Shown here in pieces: positions 10,959 through 29,689 of a stretch of DNA of 56,658 nucleotides; within the stretch, counting starts at the first letter, position 1, and every line of letters starts with the position of its first letter. The notes beneath the pieces are model-generated. The model ran no database searches. It saw only the letters and a list, made by a program, of their open reading frames with translations, and was not told where the DNA came from. This DNA is from a virus (Duplodnaviria; Caudoviricetes). Made by a program: the position numbers and the translations under genes. The DNA lies in the IMG/VR virus record IMGVR_UViG_3300035565_000019, positions 1 to 56,658 of that record; one strand, written 5' to 3'.

Positions 10959-11915
10959 ATGGCGACTTCAGGCACATACAGTTTTACTTGCAATCGAGAC
11001 CAGATCATCCGCGATGCAATGCTTAATATTGCAAAGCTAGATGAAATAGAAGGCCCGACACCTCAAGAAACAATTGATTGTGCCTTTAAGCTGAATATGC
11101 TGGTCAAGCAGTGGATGGGTACAAAAGACTTTGCGCCTGGACTTAAGGAGTGGACGCAACGTCGAGGCTTCCTTTACATGGATGGTCGCACTGGCAAGTA
11201 TAGCCTTAGTCCGACATCTGTTGGATGGACTAACACGTTCAATAGCACCACTACAATGGCGTCAGTATCGTCTGGCTCTATTATTGCAGTTACATCATCT
11301 GCTAACATGACTGCAGGTGATAACATTGGACTTGACCTTGATATAGGGTATATTTACTGGTCTACCATTGCAATCGGCGGAATATCTGGCAATAACATAA
11401 CTATTGCCGGCACTGTTCCGTCGTTGGCGTCTAAAAGCTCAATTGTTTATAGTTACACTACTGGCGCGCAGCAGCCATTAGAAGTGCGCACAGCATTTCT
11501 ACGTGATTCGTTTTACAGTGATACGCCATTAAAATTGATGACTTCTAGCGAGTATGATTATTTGCCAAACAAGACTGATCCTAATAATCTTTCTGATCCA
11601 ACTGCTATTTATTACGAATGGCAATTGGCGCAAGGTAATCTTTACGTCGATGTCGGTGGTGCTGCGGATTTGTCCAAGTATATTTGCTTGACATACTTGG
11701 AGGAGACCCAAGATTTTAATAATCCAGCAGATGCTCCAGAATATCCGCAAGAATGGTTTTTACCATTGACTCTGGGTTTAGCAAAGCAGATAGCGCCAAT
11801 GTATCGTGCAGAGTGGACTCCGTTGCTGCAAGACAACTATACGACTGCGTTGGCAATAGCGCAGAAGAAAGGTGCAAACCGCGAAACGCTGTACTTCCAA
11901 CCAGGGCTAGACTAA
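10959..11915 (+). CDS. Head-tail adaptor/tail tubular protein A-like
   Basis: MATSGTYSF..RDQIIRDA start, PTAIYY and PQEWFLPLTLGLA motifs; upstream of the gp10-like gene. Confidence 0.7.
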   Translation: MATSGTYSFTCNRDQIIRDAMLNIAKLDEIEGPTPQETIDCAFKLNMLVKQWMGTKDFAPGLKEWTQRRGFLYMDGRTGKYSLSPTSVGWTNTFNSTTTMASVSSGSIIAVTSSANMTAGDNIGLDLDIGYIYWSTIAIGGISGNNITIAGTVPSLASKSSIVYSYTTGAQQPLEVRTAFLRDSFYSDTPLKLMTSSEYDYLPNKTDPNNLSDPTAIYYEWQLAQGNLYVDVGGAADLSKYICLTYLEETQDFNNPADAPEYPQEWFLPLTLGLAKQIAPMYRAEWTPLLQDNYTTALAIAQKKGANRETLYFQPGLD

Positions 11916-13399
11916 TGCCGCTCACACCCCTTTCATTGTTCGGAACAAGCATCAAGTCGATATCTCCTGCCATGACAGCACAGAGACGCTTGAATTGCTT
12001 TTACATTCCAAGGGACGATGGTGATAAGAGTTCAATTGCGCTGATTGGTACCCCAGGATTACTTTTGTGGGCATCTTTGCCTACTTACCCCATACGAGGG
12101 TGGCGCGTGGTGGGCTCTACGCTCTACGTAGTCGCGGGTGCCGTATTCTATAAAGTGAGCACAGCAGGCACTATTACTGCCATCCCAGTCACATTCGGTA
12201 CGGGCATACCACTAGGCACTAATAAAGTGAGTATGGTGGATAATGGCGTTCAGCTAGGCATTGTTGATCACATCAACCTGTACTGCTATACCATTACTAC
12301 AGGCTCTTACCAACAGTCTAATTTGAATTCTGCTGAGGCATTCGGTATTGTTTCAGACTTCGCCACCCAGGGCGTTGCTGGCGCGACCACTATCACGTTC
12401 CTTAATGGCCGTTGCACTGCTGAGAAAGCTGGTTCACGTCAGGCTTATACGAGCGGTTCGTATGACATTACTGCATGGGGCGGAAACGCCACACACAGCG
12501 CCCTAATATTCTTCACAAAGGAAAATGCTGCTGATCTATTGGTGGCTGTCGAAGCATTTAATGGCACAATGATTTTATGGGGGGATTCGACGATTGAATA
12601 CTGGCAAGACGTTGGTACTTCACCGTTGCCATATTCCCGTATTCAAGGCGCGACACAGACATATGGGTTAGCTGCTAAATCATCAAGGGCGGTGGTAGAA
12701 AACACATTGTTCTTCTTGGCCAAGAACCCGCAAGGTCATATTAAAGTGATGTCGATATCTAATGGATATGCCCCGCAACGCGTAAGTACCGACGACGTAG
12801 ACGATTTCATAAATGACATGACTTCATTTACAGACGCGGCAGCTCTGACTTATGTCGCCTATGGGCATACGATGTATCAGCTGACCTTCCCCACTGACGG
12901 AAGAACCCTGTTGTATGACACGACGACAAAAGTCTGGCAAGAGGCGCAGACAGGGCTAGATTTGATTGGGCGTCATCAAGCTGAACTCGGCATTTCTTTT
13001 AATGGCCAGAATATCGCTGGTGATTATTCAAGTGGAAGTATGTACACGTTTGATGAATATACCTTCACTGATAATGGTGTGGCTATAAAGCGCCAAGTAG
13101 CGTCCAAACATATCCGTAACGGAGGCAATCCGCTCACCCTGTCAGAGCTTGTGCTTGATATAGAAACTGGTGTCGGATTGCAGGCTAGTCAGGGCAATGA
13201 CCCGCAAATAGCCATGGAGCGCTCTAAGGATGGCGGTAGAACATACGGGCAACCCAGACTGACATCGATGGGCAAGGCTGGCCAGTATCTGTCCCCAAAA
13301 GTTCGCTGGCGCAGACTAGGCACGAGTGATGACCATGTGTTTCGCTTCACCGTGACCGACCCTGTAAAGTTTGTAGTTACTGGAGGCTCTGTATCATGA
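11915..13399 (+). CDS. P22 gp10-like packaged-DNA stabilisation/tail hub protein
   Basis: TPGL start, YQLTFPT..TLLYD, SKDGGRTYG and VRWRRLG motifs; TAATG coupling at 11915. Confidence 0.8.
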   Translation: MPLTPLSLFGTSIKSISPAMTAQRRLNCFYIPRDDGDKSSIALIGTPGLLLWASLPTYPIRGWRVVGSTLYVVAGAVFYKVSTAGTITAIPVTFGTGIPLGTNKVSMVDNGVQLGIVDHINLYCYTITTGSYQQSNLNSAEAFGIVSDFATQGVAGATTITFLNGRCTAEKAGSRQAYTSGSYDITAWGGNATHSALIFFTKENAADLLVAVEAFNGTMILWGDSTIEYWQDVGTSPLPYSRIQGATQTYGLAAKSSRAVVENTLFFLAKNPQGHIKVMSISNGYAPQRVSTDDVDDFINDMTSFTDAAALTYVAYGHTMYQLTFPTDGRTLLYDTTTKVWQEAQTGLDLIGRHQAELGISFNGQNIAGDYSSGSMYTFDEYTFTDNGVAIKRQVASKHIRNGGNPLTLSELVLDIETGVGLQASQGNDPQIAMERSKDGGRTYGQPRLTSMGKAGQYLSPKVRWRRLGTSDDHVFRFTVTDPVKFVVTGGSVS

Positions 13400-14743: not shown

Positions 14744-14745
14744 TC

Positions 14746-15072
14746 ATGGCATCCTTCTTCTACCCCCTGTACGCAATCGCAAGTCTGCTAGTGACCATCT
14801 CGGCATTCTTTCTCGCGCCTATACTTCCGATATTTGCAAACGACAAAGGAATGCTCCCTTCTTGGCTGTCTTGGTATCAGATGCCAGACAATCCATTATG
14901 GGGAGACAACTTATGGGCAATAGACAATCCTTCCTATAGCAAGTATCGCTTGGCTATGACTTACCAATGGAGGAATCCCGCCTTATGCTTGTCCCGCTTC
15001 TCCGTCTTTTGTGTTAACTATAAATCAAGTAAGCGCAGACTAAATGTTAAAGCTACATACAATAGAATTTGA
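14746..15072 (+). pseudogene. Probably truncated fibre-associated membrane protein
   Basis: TM segment, LPSWLSWYQMPDNPLWGD and WRNPA motifs; the sequence then degrades where the AT-rich hydroxylase cassette begins. Confidence 0.4.
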
Positions 15073-15592
15073 TGTTAAACCTTTATTAAAGGTAATTGAG
15101 GACAACCCACAGCTATGGAACCAGCATACATCGCGCACAAAGTCTCTTGACTCGCCACATCGCGATATGTCGGACATTTGGGTTAGATACAATGATCCCA
15201 AAAATTTTACAGGAGATCGTCTAGCATTCAATGAGCCACATGAGTCAGTATGGTATCCATCAGCCGCCATACCTTATGTCAAGGATATTGTATATGATAT
15301 AATGTGCAGGGTTAAAGGTGAACGTCTTGGGGGCATATTAATTACTAAATTACCAGCGGGTAGGCAATGTTATCCGCATATAGACGGAGGTTGGCATGCC
15401 AAATATTATGATAAATATGCTGTTCAATTAGCCGGGCATCCACTTCAATCATTTAATGTCGGGAACGAAAAATTAGTGACGAAGGCTGGAGATGTGTTTC
15501 AATTTGAGAATGATGTAATTCATTGGGTAGAAAATAACAGCCCTGAAGACAGAATTACCCTTATAGTTTGCATTAGGAGCGATCGTGGATAA
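15044..15592 (+). CDS. Aspartyl/asparaginyl beta-hydroxylase-like 2OG-Fe(II) oxygenase
   Basis: YPHID (HxD), FENDVIHWVENNSPEDRITLIVCIR (distal His and Arg). Confidence 0.8.
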   Translation: MLKLHTIEFDVKPLLKVIEDNPQLWNQHTSRTKSLDSPHRDMSDIWVRYNDPKNFTGDRLAFNEPHESVWYPSAAIPYVKDIVYDIMCRVKGERLGGILITKLPAGRQCYPHIDGGWHAKYYDKYAVQLAGHPLQSFNVGNEKLVTKAGDVFQFENDVIHWVENNSPEDRITLIVCIRSDRG

Positions 15593-15908
15593 AGTTGAAA
15601 TCAAGACACTGCATCATTTTTCCAATGGAGTTTATGCAAAGGAAATGCATATTCCTATGAATCATCATGCTCAAACACATAAGCACTCTTATGACCACAT
15701 GAGCATTTTAGCTAAAGGTAAAGTTGGAATATTTGTAAATGAGAATCCGGAAGTAATTTATGAAGCTCCTGCTTGTATTGAAATTAAAGCTGGTATATCT
15801 CATACAATCAATGCTTATGAAGCCGCAGTCTGGTTTTGCATTCATAAGACAACAGAAACTGATGAGAAAAAAGTAGATTCAATACTGATTGAAAAGAACG
15901 GAGAATAA
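15585..15908 (+). CDS. Cupin-domain protein
   Basis: HHFSNGVYAKE, HKHSYDH, AGISH and WFCIH motifs. Confidence 0.75.
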   Translation: MDKVEIKTLHHFSNGVYAKEMHIPMNHHAQTHKHSYDHMSILAKGKVGIFVNENPEVIYEAPACIEIKAGISHTINAYEAAVWFCIHKTTETDEKKVDSILIEKNGE

Positions 15909-15909
15909 T

Positions 15910-17427
15910 ATGCCATTTGGATACGTAGCAGCGGGGATCGTGGTCGCAAACGTAGTAAGTTCAGCCACTGGGGGAAGCGGCAGCGGTATTTATGACATTA
16001 CAGGAAGCAAAGACCTTGCTAAAATCGGTAATATTTATGCTGCTGGCGTTGGCATTTACACCGGATTAAGCGCAATGGGTGTATTTAATGCGTCTTCTGG
16101 GATGCTTACGGAAGCTGATGCAGCATCTCTAGCTAATTCTGGTATGAGCGATCAAGCTATGACCACAGTTGCGCAGAACGTGGCAAACGGCTCTATGTCG
16201 TCAGCACAGGCAGGAGCATTTTCATCTCAAGTAGCCGCTGGGCAAATATCTTCTGAAGCAGCTACTTCAATTGCCACTGATATCAATAGTGGCGCTGTGT
16301 CGGCCAACGATGCTATTCAAATATCCTCCCAAGCCAATGTGATAAAAGCTGGTGGTACGCCCACAGGACTTGGTGATAAGGCACTGGCGTATATGAAAAC
16401 TGCGCAAGGTATAAATACTATCGCTAGTATACTTACTACAGGCGCGGGAGCAGCATACTCATCTGGCGTCTCTGGGCAGATAGGTCAAACCGCAATGACG
16501 GGGGCACAAAAAGCTGCGGACATTGTAGCCACTGCCGACCTACAAGCCGCAGCACAACAATCCCAAGCAGCGAAGGACGCTTCTGCGCAGCAAATAGCTG
16601 GCGGGCAGGCTGCTAAAACTGATATATCCGGCGCTGCTACACAGCAAACGGCGCTTGCACAACCATACATGTCTGCTGGCACTTCTGCATTGTCGCGGTT
16701 ATCAGAAGGACTAAAAACTGGCGGTGAATTTAATCAGCCATTCAAAATGGAAGAGTCTCCGCAATATAAATTTGCGCTTGAGCAAGGGATGCAGGCTATT
16801 GAAGGTAAAGCTGCTAAAGGTGGGACGCAACTATCCTCAGGAAACTTGGCTGCAATGACGGGATATGCGGTAGGTGAAGCAGGCCAATTCGAGCAGCAAG
16901 CATTTAGTCAATGGTTAGCCAGCAAGAATTTGGATATCGGCACATTGCAGAACATGGTTCGGACTGGCCAAGTGTCTTCACAGCAACTAGCGCAAGAGTT
17001 AGGCCAAGCAGGCGTCAGCCAGGCAACCATCGATCAATATATTGGCAATGTTGGAGCTGCAGGGACAGTAGGCGCAGCAGCAGCAACTGCCAAAGGGATT
17101 ACAGGCGCAGCAGAGGCACAAGCTGCAGGCACTGCTGGAGTGACCAAAGCCCAGACTGATATGATGCAACAACAGGGCGCGATAAGAGGCGGCGCTGGAA
17201 CTGATATTCTTGGTAAGATTCCTTCTGTAATTCAAGGATTAAGCAGTAGTACTCCCGCTAGTACACCCCAAGCACCAGGAACAACACCAATGTCTAACTT
17301 ACCAGCGCCAGGAACTATGAACACAACTCCGATGAGCGCGGGTGTTGTAGATTCTAGCGGCGGATTTGATGCGTTTGGCAACCCGATAGGCGGTGTTACA
17401 GACAATACCGGTAATTACTCAGGATAA
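15910..17427 (+). CDS. DNA ejection/pilot protein (P22 gp7-like)
   Basis: Ala/Gly/Gln-rich; QPYMSAG..AL and SPQYKFALEQG..A motifs. Confidence 0.7.
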   Translation: MPFGYVAAGIVVANVVSSATGGSGSGIYDITGSKDLAKIGNIYAAGVGIYTGLSAMGVFNASSGMLTEADAASLANSGMSDQAMTTVAQNVANGSMSSAQAGAFSSQVAAGQISSEAATSIATDINSGAVSANDAIQISSQANVIKAGGTPTGLGDKALAYMKTAQGINTIASILTTGAGAAYSSGVSGQIGQTAMTGAQKAADIVATADLQAAAQQSQAAKDASAQQIAGGQAAKTDISGAATQQTALAQPYMSAGTSALSRLSEGLKTGGEFNQPFKMEESPQYKFALEQGMQAIEGKAAKGGTQLSSGNLAAMTGYAVGEAGQFEQQAFSQWLASKNLDIGTLQNMVRTGQVSSQQLAQELGQAGVSQATIDQYIGNVGAAGTVGAAAATAKGITGAAEAQAAGTAGVTKAQTDMMQQQGAIRGGAGTDILGKIPSVIQGLSSSTPASTPQAPGTTPMSNLPAPGTMNTTPMSAGVVDSSGGFDAFGNPIGGVTDNTGNYSG

Positions 17428-17445
17428 TAAGTTAAGGAGAAGAAA

Positions 17446-19239
17446 ATGGCTGGAGAACAAATAGCAATGGAAGCGCCTTTGGCTGCTGTAAACCCTCAAA
17501 TAGCAATGGCTTCCACGCAACCAAATCCAGATATTGCACGGAACTTTCAACTTCCTGCGAAAGTCGATATTGAAGGGGGTCAGGCGCACGCAGCAGAAGC
17601 AATGCAGCGTACAGGAGAGGCAAAAGCCAAAACTAATCTGCTTCAGGAAGACGAAACTGACCGCATGATTATCAAGCAAATCAAACAAGTCGATCCTGAC
17701 GCTAACACTTCCACCGTAGAAGGAATGAAAAAATTACTTGGCCATGCTAAAGGCAGCGGATTAAGCGATACAGCAATTACTCGTATTAATAAAGCACTTG
17801 GCGATAAGACTACAGCTGATTTAGATTATAAAAATGTTTTAATGAAAGGATCTTTAGAAACTCTTGATCTTGGGCATAAAGAAGTTCAGTGGACTAATGA
17901 AAATTTGGTACGGCCAATGGTAGAGGCACGCCGCAGTAAATATGCCGAAACTCAAGATGACAAGCAAGCTGACTTAGCATTTGAAACTGCTAAATCTGCT
18001 TCAATAGAACTAGCTGCTCAGCTTAAAAATCCTGATGGTACGCCAAAATTTACAGATGCGCATATAGCCAAAATGAAAGCTGCTACATATGACGAAGTAG
18101 CGCATAACTATAATGTCACGGATGTCGCTGCGCAGCATATGAAAGAAGCTTTAGCTAATAAACAAGCGCAAGCCAAGATTGAATTGGAGCAAGCACAAGC
18201 AATGGCTGCGAGTGGGCGTGCTGAACGTGAATTGGCGCAAGCTGAAAAATTGAGTCGTGATGAAGGTGGCGGTAAACCTGAATTGAAGACGCTTAATGTC
18301 GATGGCAAGCCAGCATCTGTCAATTATAAGGGGGGCAAGATCTTTGGGTTAGATGGTAAGGAAATAGCGCCAGAGCGTGTCACGCCAGTAGAAGGCAGAA
18401 GCTCTTCATTGATAACAGGTCGATACAACCCGCGCACTATTTCGGCTGCAAAAGACGTACTAAATGCACTTCACACTATTAATGAGTCGCCATTTCAAAC
18501 TGAAGGCATATTCGGCTCAAATAAACATAGCGATAGCATACTTGGCGATGTTTCCAAGTATGCGTCAAAAGTACTAACTACTGATAGCGCCCAGCGCTTT
18601 AGCACTGTGCAACTAGACTTAAATCGCGCGCTTGGTATAACACTTGAGATGGGCGGTAAAACGAGCGAGGCAGAGTCTAAGCAACTTTCCGGTTATAGTA
18701 TTGCTGCCGGCGATACTGTAGGCGCTGCACAAATGAAGATTGCTGGATCTGCCCAAGTCGTACGAAATGCACTTGAGTCAATGGAGACCACTAATTTACC
18801 TGCTAGCCAAAGAAAAGAAGTTGATAAGCTACTCGACGAACTTAAACAGTTCCCGACGCAGCGTGAGCTCCAGGCCAAGTACTACGAGGGCGCCAAGAAA
18901 CCAGCGCTTGGTATTACGCCAGCCAAGAAGGCCGAAGGCGGCACGTATGAACAACCCATTGCAGCTGCTTTGGGCCCAGTAGAATCGCATGATAACTTGC
19001 CTGACCCGTCAAAATATACAGGCAAAATAGCAACAGATGAGGATACAAAAGAACAATTTAAATCTGATGGCAAGAAGTGGGTGCCAATACCAGGCGCAAA
19101 GAAAGCAAAGCCTACTCAAGGCACTGCAGATAGCATAGAGTCAATTAGGTCGGCATTTATAAAGGGCGATATAAGTGAAGACGAAGCACATAGCCGCTTA
19201 GTTGCGCTTAATACAGAGGCAGGCAAAGGAACCGCATAA
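17446..19239 (+). CDS. Internal virion/ejection protein
   Basis: 597 aa helical charged protein after the pilot protein; RBS AAGGAG. Confidence 0.6.
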   Translation: MAGEQIAMEAPLAAVNPQIAMASTQPNPDIARNFQLPAKVDIEGGQAHAAEAMQRTGEAKAKTNLLQEDETDRMIIKQIKQVDPDANTSTVEGMKKLLGHAKGSGLSDTAITRINKALGDKTTADLDYKNVLMKGSLETLDLGHKEVQWTNENLVRPMVEARRSKYAETQDDKQADLAFETAKSASIELAAQLKNPDGTPKFTDAHIAKMKAATYDEVAHNYNVTDVAAQHMKEALANKQAQAKIELEQAQAMAASGRAERELAQAEKLSRDEGGGKPELKTLNVDGKPASVNYKGGKIFGLDGKEIAPERVTPVEGRSSSLITGRYNPRTISAAKDVLNALHTINESPFQTEGIFGSNKHSDSILGDVSKYASKVLTTDSAQRFSTVQLDLNRALGITLEMGGKTSEAESKQLSGYSIAAGDTVGAAQMKIAGSAQVVRNALESMETTNLPASQRKEVDKLLDELKQFPTQRELQAKYYEGAKKPALGITPAKKAEGGTYEQPIAAALGPVESHDNLPDPSKYTGKIATDEDTKEQFKSDGKKWVPIPGAKKAKPTQGTADSIESIRSAFIKGDISEDEAHSRLVALNTEAGKGTA

Positions 19240-20246
19240 TGGCAGCCCCTTGGAAAATGGATGATGCGCAAACATCTGACACGCCAGTTTTTACCATGAA
19301 TAGCTCAGATGCTCATATAGGAATGGAACATAAAGAGTCATACAGCCAATTTGGAGAAGGCACAGAGGCATACCCTGGCGGACCTACCATTGCAGAAGCA
19401 CGCCGCGCAAAGACATTTGAGATATTAGTTGATGCGGCAAGTCTTATTGCGCCAGTGGGGCGCGCTGGTATGGGTGCGATATTAGCTAGCGAACCATCAG
19501 AGGTTGAAGCAGCAATAAAAGCGCCATCTGTTAACTGGATTGAGCAAGTTGTTAAAGATTTGCTTCCACATAATTCTAAAGCTTTTACTGCAACAGAGGG
19601 AATGACAGAAAGGCAAAAAGAAGCTCTAAAACTTTATATGCACGCACCTGCGCCATTTCAACCAAGAATAAAACAGCAAAAAGCTGCGCTTGAGCATGCA
19701 GTTAACCAAGGTCATTTTACAAAAGAGCAAGCAGCTAATGTTAATGATTTGCGCAGCAGCTTAAATACCGCGCTATCTACTGAATTAAAATTACCTGGCC
19801 CAATATATCGTGGGCTTTCTGAATATCATCCTGATATGAAAATTGGCGATATTATTGGTGGAGATTCACCTGCATCATTTGGGCATCACCCAGCTTCTGT
19901 AGTTGAAAATTTTCAGTCTTCACCTGAATATATTAGGAAAGTTTCTGCAACACCAGATGTTATGCTGCAAGTTCCGGCAAACTCACTTGTGCGTGGAGTA
20001 GTTCCGAATAAAGATATTTCAGGAAAATATGCGGCAGAGAGTGAAGTGCTTTTGCACCCAGATAATAAGTTAGTTATCCAGAATATTGAAGATAAAGATA
20101 ACAGAAAAATAGTCACTGCTATGCCCGTTAAAAACTCAAATGCTCAAAATGTTAAACTTTGGTCATTAGCGCCTAGCATAGCTTTAAGTCCATCAGTAGC
20201 GAGCACTAATACACTAATAGAAAGCTGGAAGAAGGAGAAAGAATAA
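19239..20246 (+). CDS. ADP-ribosyltransferase (VIP2/C3/T4 Alt-like, R-S-ExE class)
   Basis: IYRGL, PASF and AESEVLL motifs in the correct order and spacing; TAATG-coupled on both sides. Confidence 0.75.
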   Translation: MAAPWKMDDAQTSDTPVFTMNSSDAHIGMEHKESYSQFGEGTEAYPGGPTIAEARRAKTFEILVDAASLIAPVGRAGMGAILASEPSEVEAAIKAPSVNWIEQVVKDLLPHNSKAFTATEGMTERQKEALKLYMHAPAPFQPRIKQQKAALEHAVNQGHFTKEQAANVNDLRSSLNTALSTELKLPGPIYRGLSEYHPDMKIGDIIGGDSPASFGHHPASVVENFQSSPEYIRKVSATPDVMLQVPANSLVRGVVPNKDISGKYAAESEVLLHPDNKLVIQNIEDKDNRKIVTAMPVKNSNAQNVKLWSLAPSIALSPSVASTNTLIESWKKEKE

Positions 20247-22357
20247 TGGCGTTTACAATCTCAGACGATTTAGAAGCAGAGTTGAAAATCCCGCCAGAGG
20301 TGCAACAAGGACGTGATGCTATTGCTGCGGACCAAATACGGCGTGAAGTAGTTAATCCTGATATTAATGAGGAGACTGGGAAGCCTGTTACACTGTCAAA
20401 AGATCTTCTTAAAATAAAACCTGCTAAATTTACTATTACAGACGATCCTGCAGATGCAAAACATGATGCATCTGAGTATGAAGCGCCGCCTATTAAGTCA
20501 TTAAAGCGGCGCATCGGGCGCAATGTGCGCGGCGCCATCGAGGCAGGGCTTACCATGGCTACTGGCGCTTTAGGCGGCATCGCAGGACTTGGCGGCGAAG
20601 CGTATCAACTTGCCCGCCATGAAGCAACGACGCCTCGCCGTGCCGAGAAGTTAATGGAACCTGGCGCTGTGAAAGAGACTATCCAGCAAGCAATGACATA
20701 CCAGCCCCGCACTGAAAAGGGCAAGGAATACGTACAAGATATTGCCACGCCTGAATCGCTTCTTAATCCTTTGACCTATGTCAAGGCGCTAAGCGACGTT
20801 GGTGAAAGCATCAAAGATCAAGTCGATTCTCCTGAAGCCAAAGCCGCAGTAGACTTGACGCTAAATGCGGCATCTATGGCATTGCCTAAAGTAGCTGGCG
20901 CCATAACTAGCGCGCCAAAATATCTTATGTCAGGCAGCGAAACAGCGCGCAAGACCGCGCGCGAGAATATCGCTGCATTCAAAAAAGAAGGCATTACGCC
21001 ATCTCTTGGCCAAGTGTCTGCAGGCGGAGCAACTAAAGGCGCTGGCGGCAGTGAAGCACTAGTTGCGGAAGAAGCGCCAAAGATCGCCGCGCAAGCTACT
21101 AAGCTTGCAGATAAGTTAAGCCCAATTACTACATCTGAAGAAGCAGGCAATGTCATACATGAAGCAATTATGGGCAAGCCTGTAACCGAGACTCTTACGC
21201 CAAAACGTAAAGCCATTGAATCTCCAACTGGTGAGCGTATCGGCGGATGGGAGCAAGATGTTAATGAACGTGAAAGTATATTGCATGATACTTGGAAGAA
21301 AATGGTAGGTGAGGATGCTAAGGTCTATCTAAAGTCTACATTGCTGGCGCTTAAAGAAATGACAACGCCAACTGCTGGCGCAGAAGCTACGACTTCCGGA
21401 TTGCTAAACACAAAGATCATGGATATTCGCCGCAGAATGGTAGATGACACAGGCAAGCCAAGGTCAATGCCGCTTAATGCCATTGAAGACGTGCGCTCGC
21501 TTATCGGTGAACTGACTGACCCTACAATGGAAGTTACTATATCAAAAGGCCAAGCTAATAAATTATATGGCGCCATTAAATCAGATGTTGGCGAAATGGT
21601 TGCTAGTAAAGGAGATAAAGTCAAGGCCGCTTATAATGACGCATTCGAATATTCACGCAAGAAGCACGAAATCGTCAGTAGTTTAATGGAGCCATTGCGC
21701 ACGGCCAAGATTCCTGAGCAAGCATTTACTTTTGCTACGGCTGGCACTCCTGAAGGTGCTAGCCAACTTCGCACTTTGTTCCAGGGAAAAGGTGAAGGAG
21801 TTTCAAAAGTAAGCGGTCTAAATAAAGCTGAGCAAGATGTTGTACGTTCTGTTATGTTCAGAAAGTTAGGAGGCGCAGATGCCGGTGAGTTTAGCCCAAC
21901 CAAGTTCCTTGCTAACTGGAATAACATGCATAATGACGCAAAGGAAGTTCTTTTCGGCGCTCCGGGTTCTGCGCTGCGTAATCATTTAGACGCCTTAAAT
22001 ACGGTTATGCTTAAGTCTAAGAGTACTGCGACAACAATTTATGAATTACGTAACTATGCCGCAGATCATGGCATGATTGGCTCAGCAACTGCGCTAGCTG
22101 TATTATCTGGCCGACATGGAATGGCTTCTATTTTGCTTTCAGGACTTGGCGCTGGGGCTGTAGCAGGTCGGCTAATACAGCGCCCATTCTTTGTCAAGTG
22201 GCTGACTTCTGCCTCGAATAAAAAGCCGGCAAGCATAGTTCCAATGCTTGGCATGTTGGCGCAAAAAGCCGCAACATTGCCACCTAATGACCAACAAGAC
22301 GTAAAAGAATATCTTGCCAATATACAAAGCATCACAGCACCAGGAGGAAAACAATAA
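20246..22357 (+). CDS. Large internal virion/ejection protein
   Basis: 703 aa helical; MTYQPRTEKG and FSPTKFLANWN motifs, C-terminal hydrophobic Gly/Ala segment. Confidence 0.65.
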   Translation: MAFTISDDLEAELKIPPEVQQGRDAIAADQIRREVVNPDINEETGKPVTLSKDLLKIKPAKFTITDDPADAKHDASEYEAPPIKSLKRRIGRNVRGAIEAGLTMATGALGGIAGLGGEAYQLARHEATTPRRAEKLMEPGAVKETIQQAMTYQPRTEKGKEYVQDIATPESLLNPLTYVKALSDVGESIKDQVDSPEAKAAVDLTLNAASMALPKVAGAITSAPKYLMSGSETARKTARENIAAFKKEGITPSLGQVSAGGATKGAGGSEALVAEEAPKIAAQATKLADKLSPITTSEEAGNVIHEAIMGKPVTETLTPKRKAIESPTGERIGGWEQDVNERESILHDTWKKMVGEDAKVYLKSTLLALKEMTTPTAGAEATTSGLLNTKIMDIRRRMVDDTGKPRSMPLNAIEDVRSLIGELTDPTMEVTISKGQANKLYGAIKSDVGEMVASKGDKVKAAYNDAFEYSRKKHEIVSSLMEPLRTAKIPEQAFTFATAGTPEGASQLRTLFQGKGEGVSKVSGLNKAEQDVVRSVMFRKLGGADAGEFSPTKFLANWNNMHNDAKEVLFGAPGSALRNHLDALNTVMLKSKSTATTIYELRNYAADHGMIGSATALAVLSGRHGMASILLSGLGAGAVAGRLIQRPFFVKWLTSASNKKPASIVPMLGMLAQKAATLPPNDQQDVKEYLANIQSITAPGGKQ

Positions 22358-23703
22358 TGGCAAAACTGCTGATAGTCGACACTGATAATGTGGGCTTATC
22401 GCTTGCTTGGCGTTCTGCACAGGCAGGGCATGAAGTGCGCTGGTACGTCAAACCGAAGAAATGTAATCATCCCGATACCGGCCGCGGATTCAAGGGCGTG
22501 ACTAAAGTAGAAAACTTTGTGCCGTCAATGATGTGGGCAGACCTTGTCATTTGTACTAGCAATGATGATTATCTTGATCGCCTGGACTTCTTCAAGAAAA
22601 AAGGCGCTAATGTCTTTGCGCCGACCACTGCTTCTGCAAACTTAGAGATCAGCCGTAAAGACGGTATGGAGCTGATGGAAAAGTGTGGTATCGAGACCGC
22701 GCCATACAAGACATTCAAGCGTATGGAAGACGCGGAAGCCCATGTCAAGAAGACAGAAGAGCGGTTCGTGTTCAAGACGCTTGGCGATAACGAAGACAAG
22801 GCGTTGACCTATGTTTCCAAGAATGCGGCAGATATGCTCGAATGGATGAAGAGGATCCGCGAGTCTGGCGCCGTGCCAAAAGGCGATGTTATGCTGCAGA
22901 CATTTATTGATGGCATAGAGTTTGGTGTTTCCAGGTTCATGGGCCAAGATGGATTCGTCGGTCAATGGAATGAGTCATTCGAGCATAAGAAGCATATGAG
23001 CGGCAATCACGGTTGCAATACAGGTGAAATGGGTACCATTGCCGCCTTTACCAAAGACTCCAAGATAGGCAAAGATACGCTGGCTAAGTGCGAAGCAGAA
23101 CTTGTTAAGCTCGGCCATCTTGGCGATGTAGCCATTGGGTTCATGATCGAGAAGGCGACTGGCAAGCCATATCCGACTGAATGGACATGCCGCTTTGGCT
23201 GGCCTATCGAGAATATGATGATCGCCGCGACCAAAGGAGACCCTATACAGTGGATGATAGACGCCAAGAACGGAAAAGATACGACATCATTCAGTGAGGA
23301 TATTGGATGCTGCCTGGTATTGACACATGGTGACTTCCCGCATGGTAATAAAGACCGCCAGGATGTGACAGGCGTGCCTATTTACGGCGTAACTAAGGGC
23401 AATAAAAAGTACTTGCACCCGCAAGGCGTGAAGATTGATATAATGCATGATATGGAAGGCGACAAGATCGTCGAGCGGCCATTATGGAATTCTGCCGGAG
23501 ATTATCTTGCGGTTGTGACAGGCTTTGGAAATTGCGTTAAACAAGCAGCAGAACGGACTTACAAGACTGCCAAACAATTGCACGTGTCTAATATGCAGCT
23601 ACGCGATGATGTTGGCGAAGGCATGGAAGAGCAATTGCCAGAACTGCATAAGTTCGGCTATGCAACGCACTTCACTTACGATGGCAAAGGAGACAGGAAA
23701 TGA
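22357..23703 (+). CDS. PurD (GAR synthetase)-like ATP-grasp ligase
   Basis: LEISRKDG, EHKKHMSGNHGCNTGEMGT (cf. PurD DHKR..GDxGPNTGGMG), EWTCRFGWP (cf. EFNxRFGDP), LRDDVG. Confidence 0.8.
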   Translation: MAKLLIVDTDNVGLSLAWRSAQAGHEVRWYVKPKKCNHPDTGRGFKGVTKVENFVPSMMWADLVICTSNDDYLDRLDFFKKKGANVFAPTTASANLEISRKDGMELMEKCGIETAPYKTFKRMEDAEAHVKKTEERFVFKTLGDNEDKALTYVSKNAADMLEWMKRIRESGAVPKGDVMLQTFIDGIEFGVSRFMGQDGFVGQWNESFEHKKHMSGNHGCNTGEMGTIAAFTKDSKIGKDTLAKCEAELVKLGHLGDVAIGFMIEKATGKPYPTEWTCRFGWPIENMMIAATKGDPIQWMIDAKNGKDTTSFSEDIGCCLVLTHGDFPHGNKDRQDVTGVPIYGVTKGNKKYLHPQGVKIDIMHDMEGDKIVERPLWNSAGDYLAVVTGFGNCVKQAAERTYKTAKQLHVSNMQLRDDVGEGMEEQLPELHKFGYATHFTYDGKGDRK

Positions 23704-25181
23704 GCAACTACCTTGCGCCGACATTCGGCGTTGGATACCAAGGTTTTAATGCGCAAGGCTTACCGCTTGCCGGCGGTAAACTTTACACCTACCAAGGCGG
23801 CAGCACCAGCACTAACCAGGCTACTTACGCTACCAGCGATACTAGCACCCCTAATGCCAATCCTATAATCCTGGATTCTTCTGGCCGACCAACTACTGAA
23901 GTCTGGCTGCTTCCGCTGCTTAATTACAAATTTGTATTGACTGACTCATTAGGCAGCGCCCTTGGTTCTTGGGACTATGTAGCCGGCATTAATAGCGTGG
24001 CCGCCGCTACTCCGGTAGAGTGGACAGCTTCGGGACTTGCGCCAACATATGTGTCGTCTAACGTGTTCACAGTTCCAGGCAACCAGACTACGCTGCTCCC
24101 TATAAATAGGCGTGTCCAATATTTCTTGGCAGGCGTTCCATATTATGGATATATCTCAAACTCAGTCTATACGTCTGTTACCACAATCACTGTAGTGCCA
24201 GATTCTGTGGCAGTCGACGCCACGATAAGCGCAGTATCTTACGCCTTCCTGAACTCTGTCAATCCAAGCGTACCACAGCAATTGCTGGTAGCCGTAGCTT
24301 CGCAGACCCACGCAGCTGGCGCCGCCACCCCCGCCGACGCGGATGAATTAAATCTGACGCAAAGCCCTTCTTGGACGCTGAAGAAGTTTACGTGGGCGAC
24401 ACTGAAGTCGACGTTGCTTACATACTTCAGTGCGCTGACAGGAACTTGGGCGATTAGCATTACCGGGAATGCAGCGACAGCCACTAATGCAGCGACAGCC
24501 ACTAATGCAGCGACAGCCACTAATGCAACTTACACAACCGGTAGGTCTACAGTAGCATCAGCAACCACGCCGGACATTTTTGCATTTACAGTTAAAGGAA
24601 CTATTGATTACACCGGAACTGTTCTATGCACAGGTTTTGTGGCTGCACCGGAAGATGGGGCAAAAAGAACCTTAATATGCGCTAGTGCATGCTCATTCAC
24701 AACTAGCGCAAATCTTCAAATAGAAGGTGTACCAAGCGGTACAACCATTACTATGGCGGCAAATGCCGAGGTAAATGTGGTTGCGATCAACTCTACCATA
24801 TTCAAGATGACTTATAGTTTGTCTGGGACGTTTACGGCTACAGGGACTGGGTTTACAGCCGGGGTTACAGGAACAGCTTATTATAAGGCTGAAAACGGTT
24901 TGGTTACATTACATTTACCTAGTTTAGGCGGAACTTCAAATGCCGCTACTTTTACTATTACTGGATTACCTGCCGCCGCAGGTACATCTAATTCTGGTTT
25001 GTATTGGACACGTTGTATTGACAATGGCGGTTTAACTTTTGCAGAAGTTTTAATAAGTGGTGTCACAATCACTTTAACCAGAGTCTCCGCAGTCCCTGTT
25101 GAAACAGTATGGACAGCATCTGGAGCAAAATCATTTGGTTATGGGGGAAGTTATACAACAATTGTGTATAACTCATTCTAG
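23700..25181 (+). CDS. Tailspike/tail fibre with a P22-type head-binding N-terminus
   Basis: PLAGGKLYTY and NANPIILDSSGR N-terminal motifs; Thr-rich body. Confidence 0.75.
   Translation: MSNYLAPTFGVGYQGFNAQGLPLAGGKLYTYQGGSTSTNQATYATSDTSTPNANPIILDSSGRPTTEVWLLPLLNYKFVLTDSLGSALGSWDYVAGINSVAAATPVEWTASGLAPTYVSSNVFTVPGNQTTLLPINRRVQYFLAGVPYYGYISNSVYTSVTTITVVPDSVAVDATISAVSYAFLNSVNPSVPQQLLVAVASQTHAAGAATPADADELNLTQSPSWTLKKFTWATLKSTLLTYFSALTGTWAISITGNAATATNAATATNAATATNATYTTGRSTVASATTPDIFAFTVKGTIDYTGTVLCTGFVAAPEDGAKRTLICASACSFTTSANLQIEGVPSGTTITMAANAEVNVVAINSTIFKMTYSLSGTFTATGTGFTAGVTGTAYYKAENGLVTLHLPSLGGTSNAATFTITGLPAAAGTSNSGLYWTRCIDNGGLTFAEVLISGVTITLTRVSAVPVETVWTASGAKSFGYGGSYTTIVYNSF
24468..24527 (+). 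repeat. 18-bp tandem repeat x3.3 encoding NAATAT
   Basis: AATGCAGCGACAGCCACT at 24468, 24486 and 24504, then a partial copy. Confidence 0.95.
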
Positions 25182-25537
25182 AACCTCGCACTTATACCCA
25201 ACTGATGATTATGAAAATCCTCTCTAAACTCGAAACCAATACTCACGTACTGAAAACCGTGCCGCCACTCTTTACGAAGCGCATAGGAGAGCCTAACATG
25301 CGCCAATGCCATTCCAGCAAAGTAACGATTGACTTGCAAAACACTGGGGTGTTCGCCGAGGGCAAATGTAGAGGTGCATTCACGAAATTTATTAGGATGC
25401 TTTGCTATGTTTCGTGTCTGAAGCCAGTCAATAGCATCAAGAAAAAAATAACTTCCTTCACGATATGTGTCCTGACGTGTCCATTCATCAGCAAAACAGG
25501 ATGTTGATATGATAAGTAAAGCAAGAAATGTTTTCAC
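25178..25537 (-). CDS. Moron-like exported protein, antisense to the late operon
   Basis: GTG start after AAGGAG, signal-peptide-like N-terminus (KTFLALLIISTSCFA), C-terminal Phe, own promoter. Confidence 0.6.
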   Translation of the reverse strand: MKTFLALLIISTSCFADEWTRQDTYREGSYFFLDAIDWLQTRNIAKHPNKFRECTSTFALGEHPSVLQVNRYFAGMALAHVRLSYALRKEWRHGFQYVSIGFEFREDFHNHQLGISARF

Positions 25538-25563
25538 AGTTAGCTCCTTAATAATCATTATAT

Positions 25564-25592
25564 ATTATATCGCTTTATAGAGAAAAGTAAAC
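25564..25592 (-). promoter_or_regulatory. Class B promoter GTTTAC-N17-TATAAT
   Basis: Exact motif on the - strand; same architecture at 32526-32554 and 45786-45814. Confidence 0.7.
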
Positions 25593-25595
25593 CAT

Positions 25596-25712
25596 ATGTT
25601 TACCAAGGTACTAACGGCAATGTTGTTGATCGCTTTGGTTGTAATGATGGTGCTTTGTGGTTTTTACGGTTGGATGCATGATGAACTTCAAATTAAAAGA
25701 GTGTTAAAATGA
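25596..25712 (+). CDS. Small single-TM peptide (lysis module)
   Basis: 38 aa MFTKVLTAMLLIALVVMMVLCGFYGW..., ATGA-coupled to the next gene. Confidence 0.4.
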   Translation: MFTKVLTAMLLIALVVMMVLCGFYGWMHDELQIKRVLK

Positions 25713-26080
25713 CAGAAAAAAGAGAAGCGGAACGCACTGCCGAATACGACGCGCTATTTCACATCGTTCGGGAAATGACCGCGAAGATCTCCGACCATAT
25801 GGTAGAAGAGGAGCGCAATCGGGCAAAGGATATGGCTACCATAACGGAAGCCCTGCGCCCTATGTACGATATAATGGACTCCCTTCCAAGGGATGAACGA
25901 GGGCTTCCGTCGCCATACCTTCATCGCGCTCAGCATGAAGGGCTTAGTGCATCTAAAGGAAATTCAAGGCTGTTCAAAAACGAAATAATAAAGAAAACGG
26001 GCGAGTATGCAGTCCTGGCAGTAATCGTACTATTGGCATCAGGTAATTGGGAGCATATTTTAAAGAAGCTTATTGGGTGA
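25709..26080 (+). CDS. Membrane-anchored lysis-module protein
   Basis: C-terminal TM segment; upstream of the putative endolysin. Confidence 0.5.
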   Translation: MTEKREAERTAEYDALFHIVREMTAKISDHMVEEERNRAKDMATITEALRPMYDIMDSLPRDERGLPSPYLHRAQHEGLSASKGNSRLFKNEIIKKTGEYAVLAVIVLLASGNWEHILKKLIG

Positions 26081-26092
26081 CGGAGGTTTCAT

Positions 26093-26479
26093 ATGTGGCT
26101 CTTTGAACAATGTACCGGAAAACTGCGCGATCCTACAGGCGCTATCATAGCCGCAGGTTATGCAGGCGGCAATTGTGGCAAGAATCCTGAAGGCGTTAAT
26201 AATCCCGCTATGCAAGCTATCAAATCTGTTGGCCCTTTGCCTGCCGGTATTTACACCATGGAAGAAGTGCTAGAACAATCACATTTAGGTCCATTCGCCA
26301 TACGCTTAGTTCCTGATGCGGCTAATGTAATGTGCGGCCGCAGCGGGTTTTTCATTCACGGGGATACGACGCCGTCAGGCAACGCATCAGAGGGCTGTAT
26401 CATCATGCCAAGAGCGGTCCGCGAAGCCATGTGGGCTTCTGCTGACCATCGAATCGCAGTGTTAAAGGAGGCTTTATAA
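26093..26479 (+). CDS. Tlde1/DUF2778-like L,D-transpeptidase-fold peptidoglycan enzyme (putative endolysin)
   Basis: GPLPAGIY, RSGFFIHGD and ASEGCII (HxxxxxxxSxGC) motifs; next to a holin. Confidence 0.75.
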   Translation: MWLFEQCTGKLRDPTGAIIAAGYAGGNCGKNPEGVNNPAMQAIKSVGPLPAGIYTMEEVLEQSHLGPFAIRLVPDAANVMCGRSGFFIHGDTTPSGNASEGCIIMPRAVREAMWASADHRIAVLKEAL

Positions 26480-26958
26480 TGGACTGGAAAGACATAGCAA
26501 AAGATGTTGCAAAAGTAGCGCCAGCTTTGGGCGGTGTATTAGGCGGGCCTGCCGGCGCAGGGCTTGGCGGGCTGATCGCTGCAGCTTTGGGATGCGGTCA
26601 GACGCCGTCCGAAGTACAGCAAGCCCTTCTGACCAATCCTGACGCCGCAGTAAAGCTTAAAGAGATCGAAGCACAAGTACAGCTGGCGCAAATCTCTGCC
26701 GCTTCGGCCCAGGTCATAGCGGTCAACCAAACTTTACAGGCCGATGCGCGCGGGGATACATATTGGCAGAAAAGCCATCATGCGTTCGAATCAACATTTG
26801 CATTGTTGATCGTGGCTTCCATCTATATCCTATTGCCTGTTCTCAAGATACCTGTGCCGCTTGTAGACCCAATGGTTTGGATGATGATCGGCGGCATATT
26901 GGGCGTAACGGCCTGGCAGCATGGCGAAGTCAATAAAAAGATAGCCGATCAAGCTTAG
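26479..26958 (+). CDS. Putative holin (3TM/GTA-holin-like)
   Basis: MDWKDIA..VAPALG..LGGPAG start, two C-terminal TM segments. Confidence 0.65.
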   Translation: MDWKDIAKDVAKVAPALGGVLGGPAGAGLGGLIAAALGCGQTPSEVQQALLTNPDAAVKLKEIEAQVQLAQISAASAQVIAVNQTLQADARGDTYWQKSHHAFESTFALLIVASIYILLPVLKIPVPLVDPMVWMMIGGILGVTAWQHGEVNKKIADQA

Positions 26959-27074
26959 CGCTCACCAAACTTATCACGGCCAAGCACTTCAACTATAATC
27001 CAGAAGAAAATATAAATGGCGTATGCTTGAAGTATTGTTGCTATTATAAAAAACTGGATAAGTTTGGCCAACAT
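26955..27074 (-). CDS. Small TM peptide
   Basis: 39 aa MLAKLIQFFIIATILQAYAIYIFFWII..., last gene of the - strand operon. Confidence 0.4.
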   Translation of the reverse strand: MLAKLIQFFIIATILQAYAIYIFFWIIVEVLGRDKFGER

Positions 27075-27087
27075 ATTTTTGATCCTT

Positions 27088-27522
27088 TCAATAATCATAT
27101 TGTAGTTTTTCCCATTTGCGTCCTGCCCGTAGCCAAAGGTCTTTAGGCAACGGATCTATATGCTCTTCCAGGAAGACAATACGGTTGCATGATGTGTTCA
27201 ACAGCAGCTTTAGGCATGGCCGGCAAGGGCTAATAGTGGTAAATACTGATTTTATAGTCCATGGATCTCGGCACTGAAGTATCATGTTCTGCTCTGCATG
27301 GACTGCAAGACATGAGTCTTGGCCTGGCGGTAATTCAAATCCTTTGCATGTATTTTTATTATCGCAGTGCTTTATGCCATGCGGGACTCCATTATAGCCA
27401 ATGCTAAGCACATACCCTCTGGCGTCTACTGCTACAGCACCAACGCTTCTTCGTATACAAGTTGCGCGGGTAGCTGCAATTCTAGCTAATGTCATAAAAT
27501 ACTGATCTTTAGTTGGTCTCAT
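27088..27522 (-). CDS. dCMP deaminase
   Basis: RATCIRRSVGA, GYNGVP, HAEQN and SPCRPC motifs. Confidence 0.9.
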   Translation of the reverse strand: MRPTKDQYFMTLARIAATRATCIRRSVGAVAVDARGYVLSIGYNGVPHGIKHCDNKNTCKGFELPPGQDSCLAVHAEQNMILQCRDPWTIKSVFTTISPCRPCLKLLLNTSCNRIVFLEEHIDPLPKDLWLRAGRKWEKLQYDY

Positions 27523-28088
27523 TCTTTCACCTCATGATCGAATATTGGAAATGGCCCAAGTCCCACAGCCGCGTCGTGGTTTGGCGCTACCCAGCCTGCC
27601 GGCTTTACAATATCCAGCTTAGACCCACGCTTTGACTGTGACGCATTCTCGACCCGTATCTTGGCCATATTGGCGCGCTGTACTTCATGCCACAACATAG
27701 GCCACGGAAGTCCCATCATCAATGCAGTACCATGCACTACATAGATTAAATCTACAAGCGCGTCAGCTGCTTCATGCATGTCACCCTTTGTATGTCCGTC
27801 TTCGAACTCGTTCAGCTCTTCCTGCATGAATTTCAGACGAAACTGGAATGCATCTTCCAGCAAGAAGGACGGCTCTTTTGCCATAGGTATCTCGAACTTC
27901 TGATGGAATGCCAGTACATCATTACGCTCTTTGAATGCGCCTACCATCGGGCGTACCATGGCTACTGGTTGCACGCCATTTCCATCACTAGTTCTGTCTT
28001 GCATTTCATTCAGCGCTGCTTCAACATCTTCTGCCAACTCGATGTCAGTCTTGTTAGTGTTGATTAGCACTGTCAATATTTTTTGCAT
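27519..28088 (-). CDS. MazG-like/PRA-PH-family all-alpha dNTP pyrophosphatase
   Basis: FMQEELNEF, ADALVDLIYV, EVQRANMAK and KPAGW motifs. Confidence 0.8.
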   Translation of the reverse strand: MQKILTVLINTNKTDIELAEDVEAALNEMQDRTSDGNGVQPVAMVRPMVGAFKERNDVLAFHQKFEIPMAKEPSFLLEDAFQFRLKFMQEELNEFEDGHTKGDMHEAADALVDLIYVVHGTALMMGLPWPMLWHEVQRANMAKIRVENASQSKRGSKLDIVKPAGWVAPNHDAAVGLGPFPIFDHEVKE

Positions 28089-28098
28089 GATTTTTCTC

Positions 28099-29466: not shown

Positions 29467-29476
29467 CCAGTTCTCC

Positions 29477-29671
29477 TTATAAGTAACCAACGATTACGCC
29501 AACTGGTGGCACAAATATACCGATAATGCGAAGCGCAAGCAAGCCAACGTGGCCTGCTAAGTCTTCTGTTGCTAGCTTATAAATGTTATCTCCATAGCCA
29601 AACAGAGCAGCTGTTAAAATGCACATTATCAGCAGCAGCCCAATTATATTACTCCAGTCATCTGATTTCAT
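29477..29671 (-). CDS. Small two-TM membrane protein
   Basis: RBS AAGGAG; RIIGIFVPPVGVIVGY motif. Confidence 0.6.
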   Translation of the reverse strand: MKSDDWSNIIGLLLIMCILTAALFGYGDNIYKLATEDLAGHVGLLALRIIGIFVPPVGVIVGYL

Positions 29672-29689
29672 TTTGTCTCTCCTTTATTT

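Follow-up and report, generated by a model that had tools for sequence, protein, structure and literature searches.

We analysed a complete viral record of 56,658 bp with direct terminal repeats (IMG/VR IMGVR_UViG_3300035565_000019; Duplodnaviria, Caudoviricetes), which at its full length is called the window throughout. A gene of its tail module, at 22357..23703 on the + strand, encodes an ATP-grasp protein with the fold of PurD, the glycinamide ribonucleotide (GAR) synthetase; we call this protein the ligase. It is almost certainly not PurD. The explanation that best accounts for the data as a whole is, on balance, probably that of a PurD-fold enzyme that works as a carboxylate-amine ligase on new substrates, is made late and is linked to the virion. 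That the ligase is active and has new substrates appears quite likely from the residues that it keeps and exchanges; the joint claim that its target is a virion component, or that the enzyme is itself virion-associated, is put forward tentatively and falls short of probable.

The open reading frame (ORF) and its diagnostic segments are as follows.
22357..23703, + strand: gene of the PurD-fold ATP-grasp ligase, 448 aa, the main subject, from the ORF, profile and model
22366..22413, + strand: N-domain loop LLIVDTDNVGLSLAWR replacing PurD GxGGREHALAWK, from the alignment
22783..22806, + strand: B-loop GDNEDKAL replacing the glycine-rich PurD GLAAGKGV, with K148 kept, from the alignment
23017..23034, + strand: NTGEMG, residues 221-226 (PurD: NTGGMG), from the alignment
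23179..23211, + strand: EWTCRFGWPIE (PurD: EFNxRFGDPE), within which RFGWP is residues 279-283, nt 23191-23205, from the alignment
23494..23505, + strand: AGDY replacing PurD (S/G)GGR, with Arg changed to Y383, from the alignment
23617..23700, + strand: family-specific C-terminal extension with a conserved LPxLxxxGYA and a helix at 423-432, from the alignment and model

The original prediction, made from the DNA letters alone, had named the motifs LLIVDTDNVG, NTGEMG and RFGWP in this ORF, and all three are present. The first of them, residues 4-13, aligned to PurD V-L-V-I-G-N-G-G-R-E-H, so that in the N-domain loop the Arg, Glu and His of PurD are replaced by V, G and L and the acidic D8 and D10 are gained. 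In EWTCRFGWPIE, E275 and R279 are kept, and the PurD Asn, Asp and Glu are changed to T277, W282 and I284. The LPxLxxxGYA extension has no PurD counterpart in the alignment.

A full-length PurD-like architecture had also been proposed, and profile, model and structure searches agreed on it. On the ligase sequence itself, Pfam gave GARS_A at 50.5 bits (cut-off 27), GARS_C below its cut-off and no match to GARS_N. A profile built from 58 relatives ran end to end on a PurD chain (2yw2, E 2e-55, profile 1-416 on chain 1-422), and the next families found with the same profile were D-Ala-D-Ala ligase (Ddl; 1.5e-5) and PurK (3e-4). The AlphaFold2 model computed from the 58-relative alignment had a mean predicted local distance difference test score (pLDDT) of 95.4 and a predicted template modelling score (pTM) of 0.93, with pLDDT falling to 73 at the B-loop. 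When this model was compared with the PDB by Foldseek, the 14 best matches were all PurD (E 1e-32 to 3e-27, query TM-score (TMq) 0.67-0.75), followed by a second tier of biotin carboxylase and PurK at E ~1e-17. The folds of the B domain and the central A domain are present and all top Foldseek matches are ATP-grasp enzymes, which places the ligase in that superfamily. By the predicted model, the full four-domain PurD fold is thus confirmed. Among viral structures in BFVD no close one was found (best matches TMq <= 0.43), no PHROGs family matched the ligase, and a megablast search of window positions 14000-30000 against phage records gave no match.

To see which parts of the PurD active site persist, 9 PurDs were aligned with 212 proteins of the family (380-520 aa, counting the query) and residues were tallied by position. 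The residues kept in the 212 family rows are the following.
E97: 209
K140: 205
K148: 184
E188: 203
K211: 201
N221, T222 and G223: 168, 195 and 197
G226: 204
E275: 203
R279: 203
G281: 200
P283: 207
R416: 203
D418: 199

The ATP-grasp catalytic residues are therefore retained in ~95% of the 212 relatives. According to excerpts of two papers on PurD (here and below, all statements from cited papers rest on excerpts), binders of ATP and Mg are among the kept residues, as is the arginine on which the glycine carboxylate and the acyl-phosphate are held (PMC8880213, PMC2978367). The equivalents of E97, K140, K148, E188, K211, E275 and R279 serve ATP/Mg binding and acyl-phosphate stabilisation in PurD and other ATP-grasp enzymes. 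The exchanged positions, named by the PurD residue, are the following.
Gly preceding GGREH: D8 in 181 of 212, D10 in 141 of 212
His of GGREH: L14 in 180 of 212
Asp of RFGDPE (Asp in 9 of 9 PurDs): Trp in 174, Tyr in 30 and Phe in 3, in all 207 of 212
Glu of RFGDPE (Glu in 9 of 9 PurDs): I, A, L or T in 184 of 212
Asp of DHKR: E209 in 203 of 212
Arg of GGRV: Y383 in 166 of 212
second Gly of NTGGMG: E224 in 198 of 212
Asn of the ExN metal motif: T277 in 202 of 212
Glu: Q181 in 206 of 212
B-loop GLAAGKG: GD(N/E)EDK(S/A)

In the human enzyme, Arg13 lies in the sulfate/acyl-phosphate site, Glu14 is proposed to orient the ribose of 5-phosphoribosylamine (PRA), Asp295 is proposed as a base contacting the PRA amine and glycine, Glu297 and Asp217 contact glycine, and Arg385 is the sole basic residue at the proposed PRA-phosphate site; the B-loop sequence GLAAGKG is named as conserved in all GAR synthetases compared (PMC2978367). 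Among the human contacts Arg13, Glu14, Asp217, Asp295, Glu297, Arg292 and Arg385, the ligase retains only the equivalent of Arg292 (R279); Asp217 has become Glu209, and Arg13, Glu14, Asp295, Glu297 and Arg385 are lost. An extra acidic residue appears in the preceding strand, either D257, in the clade of the query, or D259 together with N261, in ~60 rows. Relative to PurD, the active-site loops gain ~8 acidic residues (D8, D10, D144, E146, D147, E206, E224 and D257) and lose 2 arginines. In the alignment, the proposed PRA and glycine contacts are consistently replaced by acidic, aromatic or aliphatic residues, and the substrate sites would thereby have been rebuilt into an acidic pocket lined by Trp or Tyr.

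The automatic annotation of such genes, as a divergent but true GAR synthetase serving as a purine auxiliary metabolic gene (AMG), was examined against several tests of PurD identity. The full-length PurD fold speaks for it, as does the name 'phosphoribosylamine--glycine ligase' that JGI gives to several relatives; viral purD/GART genes, which may belong to this family, are also counted as purine AMGs, even as 'virus-enriched', in viromics papers (PMC11097641, PMC11360552). In contrast, the PurD equivalog model TIGR00877 scored the ligase at 92.1 bits (91.3 in a second scan), a third of the cut-off of 288 bits that was exceeded in 14 of 14 control genomes. Across 58 members of the ligase family, Pfam found GARS_C in 58 and GARS_A in 53, and GARS_N in 1. 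The PROSITE pattern PS00184, R-[LF]-G-D-P-E-x-[EQIM] as quoted in PMC3261824, does not fit the RFGWPIEN of the ligase, and the proposed PRA and glycine contacts are lost as described above. Five genomes or metagenome-assembled genomes (MAGs) with phage-type copies (TIGR00877 65-98 bits) each hold a separate PurD of 330-560 bits, so the hosts keep their own enzyme. Pfam scans of 71 further ORFs of the window (33 + 38) revealed no other pur gene, as the original prediction had stated; the sole match with a pur- or his-sounding name was PF01503, on a MazG-like protein.

The phylogeny led to the same result. In a maximum-likelihood tree (LG+G4, quick search without bootstraps), the 58 family rows were split from the 9 PurD rows, a small sample of 8 bacterial and 1 archaeal sequences, by a branch of length 1.46 with a Shimodaira-Hasegawa-like approximate likelihood ratio (SH-aLRT) of 100. 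Bacterial and archaeal PurDs grouped together with the ligase family outside, and since family and PurDs lie on opposite sides of this branch, the ligase is not nested within the PurD clades. Taken with the tests above, the separate clade and the position of the gene in a late operon make it extremely improbable that the ligase is a GAR synthetase, and the earlier contention that it is not a purine auxiliary gene is strongly supported.

Two lines of evidence suggest that the family is under selection as an enzyme. The ratio of nonsynonymous to synonymous substitution rates (dN/dS) of the ligase was 0.025-0.063 between close homologues, among the pairs listed (25 of 53 computed). Across 82 IMG/VR loci, the median identity was 50% for the full-length ligase and 39% for Hc3, a tail hub-like protein encoded upstream, and the three large proteins encoded upstream of the ligase were mostly undetectable across the same loci. 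In addition, large in-frame inserts were present in 17 ligase homologues, at three sites.
N221|T222, within NTGEMG: 7 proteins
G226|T227, at the end of NTGEMG: 4 proteins
T277|C278, within EFT|CR: 6 proteins

As in inteins, Cys is the first residue of each insert, and the residue next after the insert is Thr, Ser or Cys. A LAGLIDADG domain was found in 14 of 21 odd-length homologues scanned. All three sites fall in the two active-site motifs, which are the most conserved stretches of the ligase. The odd-length proteins P0196, P0212, P0242 and P0245 carry extensions without similarity to proteins of the window or the loci; those of P0196 and P0212, both single proteins, are N-terminal. The C-terminal extension of P0245 (523 aa; residues 414-523), a single case, contains a DxDxT that presumably corresponds to the motif of haloacid dehalogenase (HAD) phosphatases.

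These data bear on the possibility that the ligase is a catalytically dead PurD derivative, kept as a structural, scaffolding or chaperone part for the fibre or ejection proteins. The loss of the glycine-rich B-loop and of the Asn Mg ligand would fit such a protein, as would the conserved family-specific C-terminal extension and the adjoining fibre gene. Of the residues conserved in ATP-grasp enzymes for ATP, Mg and acyl-phosphate, K140, K148, E188, K211, E275 and R279 are present in 184-205 of 212 rows, beside the Asn-to-Thr change and the replaced loop. However, K140, E188, K211, E275 and R279, which matter only for ATP and acyl-phosphate chemistry, are kept in 201-205. The active-site motifs are the most conserved ones and host the inteins, and the new acidic E224 and D257 (or D259 with N261) stand beside the metal site as if compensating. 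We therefore regard a dead protein as very improbable. The original prediction of a repurposed amide ligase is the best reading of the kept catalytic residues, the strong purifying selection and the active-site inteins, and the ligase may well be such an enzyme.

If the ligase is active, ATP and Mg would phosphorylate a carboxylate held by R279, and an amine would then attack the acyl-phosphate. The acceptor could hardly be PRA, because the proposed phosphate and ribose contacts are gone (Arg, Glu and His to V, G and L; Arg to Tyr; Asp to Trp). Free glycine would be an unlikely donor: in PurD its ammonium is held by three acidic residues, of which two have become Trp and Ile in the ligase. The ~8 extra acidic residues in the active-site loops suggest an amine with a positive charge, for example a polyamine-like compound or the side chain of lysine. 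The amine that the pocket favours should thus be cationic and carry no phosphate, and the acyl group should come from a donor that is not free glycine.

An acidic pocket of this kind would also fit a ligase for a small molecule, a nucleotide or DNA modification (a polyamine, a cofactor or a modified base) that sits in the late operon by timing or history. In PurD, a closed cleft of a kind that suits small substrates forms the active site, the phage has ThyA-like (with an insert), dCMP deaminase and MazG-like genes, and P0245 has its HAD-like DxDxT extension. Against this stands the genomic context. In none of the 82 + 8 loci inspected did the ligase adjoin genes of replication or nucleotide metabolism, and an inversion in locus L130 left its arrangement with the fibre gene unchanged. 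No consistent partner enzymes were seen; of 5 further records or genomes, 4 gave no match to a methyltransferase-GT9 fusion encoded in the window. Overall, we consider a role of this kind improbable.

The favoured reading, a late ligase linked to the virion, draws on the genes around it, which are listed here in order.
11915..13399, + strand: Hc3/tail hub-like gene (phrog_578), the conserved upstream anchor, from PHROG matches and the loci
15889..17427, + strand: ejection-protein-like gene (phrog_598), the start of a variable block that ends at the ligase, from PHROG matches
20246..22357, + strand: gene of a 703-aa fast-evolving protein, internal or ejection by position, with a weak PHROG match
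22342..22359, + strand: Shine-Dalgarno AGGAGG and TAATG stop/start overlap with the upstream gene, from the sequence
23687..23703, + strand: Shine-Dalgarno AAGGAG and ATGA start/stop overlap with the tail-fibre gene, from the sequence
23700..25181, + strand: tail-fibre-like gene, 493 aa, whose N-terminal ~100 aa are phrog_26190, from PHROG matches

The Hc3 ORF can be read from 11753, where it overlaps the preceding gene, so the start is likely near 11915. At 22355-22359 the TAA stop of the upstream gene overlaps the ATG of the ligase within TAATG, with AGGAGG 10 nt upstream, and at 23700-23703 the ligase stop overlaps the ATG of the downstream gene within ATGA. Terminator-like sites were not found on the + strand between the upstream gene, the ligase and the fibre gene. 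The coupling between an ejection protein and a tailspike that had originally been predicted was thus seen on both sides, but the labels were looser than stated. The upstream protein is an ejection protein by position only, its weak match being to a PHROG of unknown function; the 'DNA ejection' match to phrog_598 sits three genes upstream of the ligase. For the downstream product, its N-terminal phrog_26190 and relatives with tail-fibre PHROGs support the label tail-fibre-like.

We then examined how far this arrangement is conserved in 83 ligase-anchored loci (two of which, L002 and L007, are on the same contig), 78 of them with at least 700 nt downstream. Of the 53 loci that extend 8 kb or more upstream, 51 have Hc3 on that side and on the same strand, separated from the ligase by 4.1-9.1 kb with variable ejection or internal-protein genes. 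The N-terminal ~100 aa of the fibre protein are the conserved neighbour of the ligase: in the 78 loci, tblastn placed a homologue of this domain within 150 nt downstream in 37, further downstream in 10 and upstream in 1, with no match in 30. The 30 tblastn-negative loci gave 28 downstream ORFs, of which 18 were tested by PHROG after near-identical copies and very short ORFs were dropped; 12 matched phrog_26190, 1 matched other tail-fibre PHROGs, 1 was an endolysin and 4 had no assignment. The order Hc3, ejection proteins, ligase, fibre is kept at ligase identities of 39-41% (L092, L093) and 34% (MW202796). In L111 the ligase follows a phrog_511 internal virion protein, and in L130 the ligase gene has been inverted as one unit with the fibre gene. 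Conversely, among Hc3-anchored relatives with at least 9 kb downstream, 22 of 25 loci hold the ligase. Because three of the 25, in records 35-69% complete, lack it, the ligase is not needed to build the virion; it is a near-core gene, dispensable for building the particle.

A near-core late gene that follows the ejection genes, usually directly precedes the fibre gene and is coupled to both suggests either an amide or isopeptide modification of a virion component or travel together with it. The ligase might modify proteins of the fibre or of the ejection set, or be delivered along with them. A link to the virion is plausible on the grounds of conserved gene order and translational coupling, and from this context a virion-linked role would seem the most likely one. 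Cross-linking or aminoacylation of peptidoglycan, which had been proposed beside that of virion proteins, has no specific support.

Travel together with the ejection proteins could also mean that the ligase is an injected enzyme. It would be packaged with them and, with ATP from the host, would modify either a target in the cell or the incoming DNA or protein complex before any phage gene is expressed. T4 Alt and the N4 virion RNA polymerase are injected phage enzymes to which it might be likened. Such a role would account for the late expression of an ATP-using enzyme of cytoplasmic type, and is consistent with a gene that is always the last of the variable ejection/internal block, is far more conserved than the surrounding proteins and, like accessory effectors, is dispensable in some relatives. 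However, no recognisable packaging signal was seen, a 50-kDa globular protein of four domains would need to unfold to pass the tail, and a fusion to an internal protein is unconfirmed, the N-terminal extensions of P0196 and P0212 being without detectable similarity to window proteins. We judge injection to have a low probability.

Several observations weigh against a virion-linked, catalytically active ligase. Gene order alone does not show a virion target. The ligase is missing across the whole record in L123, L153 and L171 (35-69% complete), of which L153 and L171 retain the fibre N-domain. Among the fibre N-domains no invariant lysine was seen, and a fusion to a structural protein is absent among the longer homologues, the sole 2 matches both carrying inteins. 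The inteins mark conserved sequence and are no proof of catalysis, and the GDNEDK B-loop and the Thr at the canonical Mg-ligand Asn could both impair it. Late expression fits other roles too, Mu Mom being a late-expressed DNA modifier. Finally, the PRA site of PurD, to which the exchanges are compared, is itself proposed rather than solved (PMC8880213, PMC2978367).

L153, a close relative without the ligase, has an HNH endonuclease ORF (16110-16559; phrog_99, 1.8e-28) in its place, after the last internal protein and before the fibre gene.

The ligase belongs to a large uncultured podophage lineage. The family comprises 615 clusters at 90% identity (E <= 1e-5), many of them on contigs of 50-63 kb, and 129 representatives at 50% identity (E <= 1e-30); its Atlas clusters have 57-1171 members, are 79-93% viral and lack GARS_N. 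In a phage collection 28 records matched, and no cultured phage with the ligase was among them. The best match there was the uncultured MW202796 (33.6% identity, ORF unannotated), and the others, at 22-28%, were to ordinary purD in bacterial or unverified records. Copies were also found in a Nevskia MAG, in Rhodanobacteraceae bacterium ZG21-1, in a betaproteobacterial MAG, and in bins labelled Dehalococcoidia, Acidiferrales and Thermoplasmata. In Rhodanobacteraceae bacterium ZG21-1, the phage block (L092) lies in a contig of 462,125 bp, and since endolysin and spanin genes come after the fibre gene, this element is probably a prophage. Another phage block (L091) lies in a 942,606-bp contig of a MAG labelled Thermoplasmata archaeon; with a phage so close to that of the window, the archaeal label looks doubtful.

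The remaining genes of the window are those of a podophage. The + strand encodes an SU10-type portal, a terminase, a major head protein, an Ad3-like adaptor, the Hc3 hub, the ejection-like protein and fibres, and the - strand encodes PolA, an SNF2 helicase, a primase-like protein, ThyA, dCMP deaminase and the MazG-like protein. Further genes and segments are the following.
55224-56657 and 3-1013, + strand: SU10-type portal split over the window ends (Pfam profile 7-379 and 358-589)
4487-5008, + strand: TylF-like O-methyltransferase in the structural block
9344-10957, + strand: fusion of an S-adenosylmethionine (SAM)-methyltransferase to GT9 (heptosyltransferase-like), in the structural block
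15044-15592, + strand: 182-aa cupin-like ORF between fibre-like and ejection-like genes, matching the Asp/Asn beta-hydroxylase family PF05118 at 28.5 bits (cut-off 22.6)
26093-26479, + strand: Tlde1/YkuD-like (L,D-transpeptidase-type) protein adjoining a holin-like ORF, the presumed lysis region
28099-29490, - strand: thymidylate synthase homologue, 462 aa, with two Pfam stretches, the best being residues 286-461 on profile 89-265
36876-37346, - strand, 52081-52581, + strand, and 53797-54336, + strand: two endonuclease VII genes and an HNH endonuclease gene

The split of the portal at the window ends fits the terminal repeats of the record, and the split Pfam match of the thymidylate synthase homologue suggests a large insert in its first half. 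Together with the inteins of the relatives, the endonuclease genes make the lineage look rich in homing-type elements. The ORF at 15044-15592 has 49-53% identity in the distant L092 and L093, above the conservation of the ligase there. PDB sequence searches were uninformative for this ORF and for the methyltransferase-GT9 ORF at 9344. The methyltransferase-GT9 fusion, which 45 of 53 related loci share (median identity 53%), may with the TylF-like protein hint at glycan modification of the virion or envelope. We had considered a glycan-modification trio that included the ligase; this idea was weakened by the further records and genomes without the fusion, among them MW202796 (complete) and G005 and G007, which also carry the ligase, G006 being a fragment that is 22% complete.

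Comparison with known systems shows where the ligase is old and where it is new. From end to end it has the N-B-A-C fold of four domains that is known from PurD (EC 6.3.4.13; TIGR00877; structures 1gso, 2yw2, 2ys6 and 2qk4), and the two have in common the catalytic ATP-grasp residues and the motifs NTGxMG, ExxxRxGxP and, C-terminally, RxDIG. Unlike PurD, it has no GGREH, glycine-rich B-loop or Asn Mg ligand, it has lost the Asp and Glu of RFGDPE as well as the Arg of GGRV, and it is encoded in a viral late operon rather than a pur operon. PurK, PurT, biotin carboxylase, Ddl and YwfE share its superfamily and chemistry, are far more distant than PurD and have none of the motifs of the family. 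RimK, tubulin-tyrosine ligase and LysX are protein-modifying ATP-grasp ligases; they match the reaction proposed for the ligase, the ATP-dependent formation of an amide bond on a protein or peptide, and belong to other ATP-grasp clades.

The closest precedent, likened to the ligase by description only, is that of the 'extra' PurD-like proteins rrnAC0307 and Hlac_1553 of haloarchaea, which lack GARS_N and the Asp of R[LF]GDPE; Brown et al. 2011 (PMC3261824) concluded that neither is a GAR synthetase. These are cellular oddities rather than a viral family, and the excerpt of that paper offers no context or function for them (PMC3261824). In LUZ24-like phages, an ATP-grasp gene of unknown target is clustered with GATase and amidoligase genes in the early region (PMC3890496); this early-gene system is of another clade, whereas the ligase sits in the tail module. 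Full-text literature searches turned up no report of PurD-like genes within the tail or ejection modules of phages. That the ligase is the first ATP-grasp enzyme dedicated to the phage infection apparatus, as a fibre or ejection-protein modifier or an injected effector and hence a new virion-linked enzyme class, is a claim that we consider rather unlikely as it stands.

Taken together, these results describe a large and mostly viral family that carries the PurD label in public annotation pipelines. If the viral purD/GART entries counted as AMGs (PMC11097641, PMC11360552) belong to it, the metabolic inferences drawn from them would be wrong. The family offers a clean natural case of a ligase of central metabolism in which the substrate sites appear to have been rebuilt and the ATP-grasp engine kept. 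A strongly constrained enzyme is fixed between ejection proteins and fibre down to ~30% identity, and this constraint and placement suggest that virion maturation or early infection includes an ATP-dependent step that has gone unrecognised. If the ligase does modify the virion or is injected as an effector, it would represent a new class of virion-linked enzymatic function.

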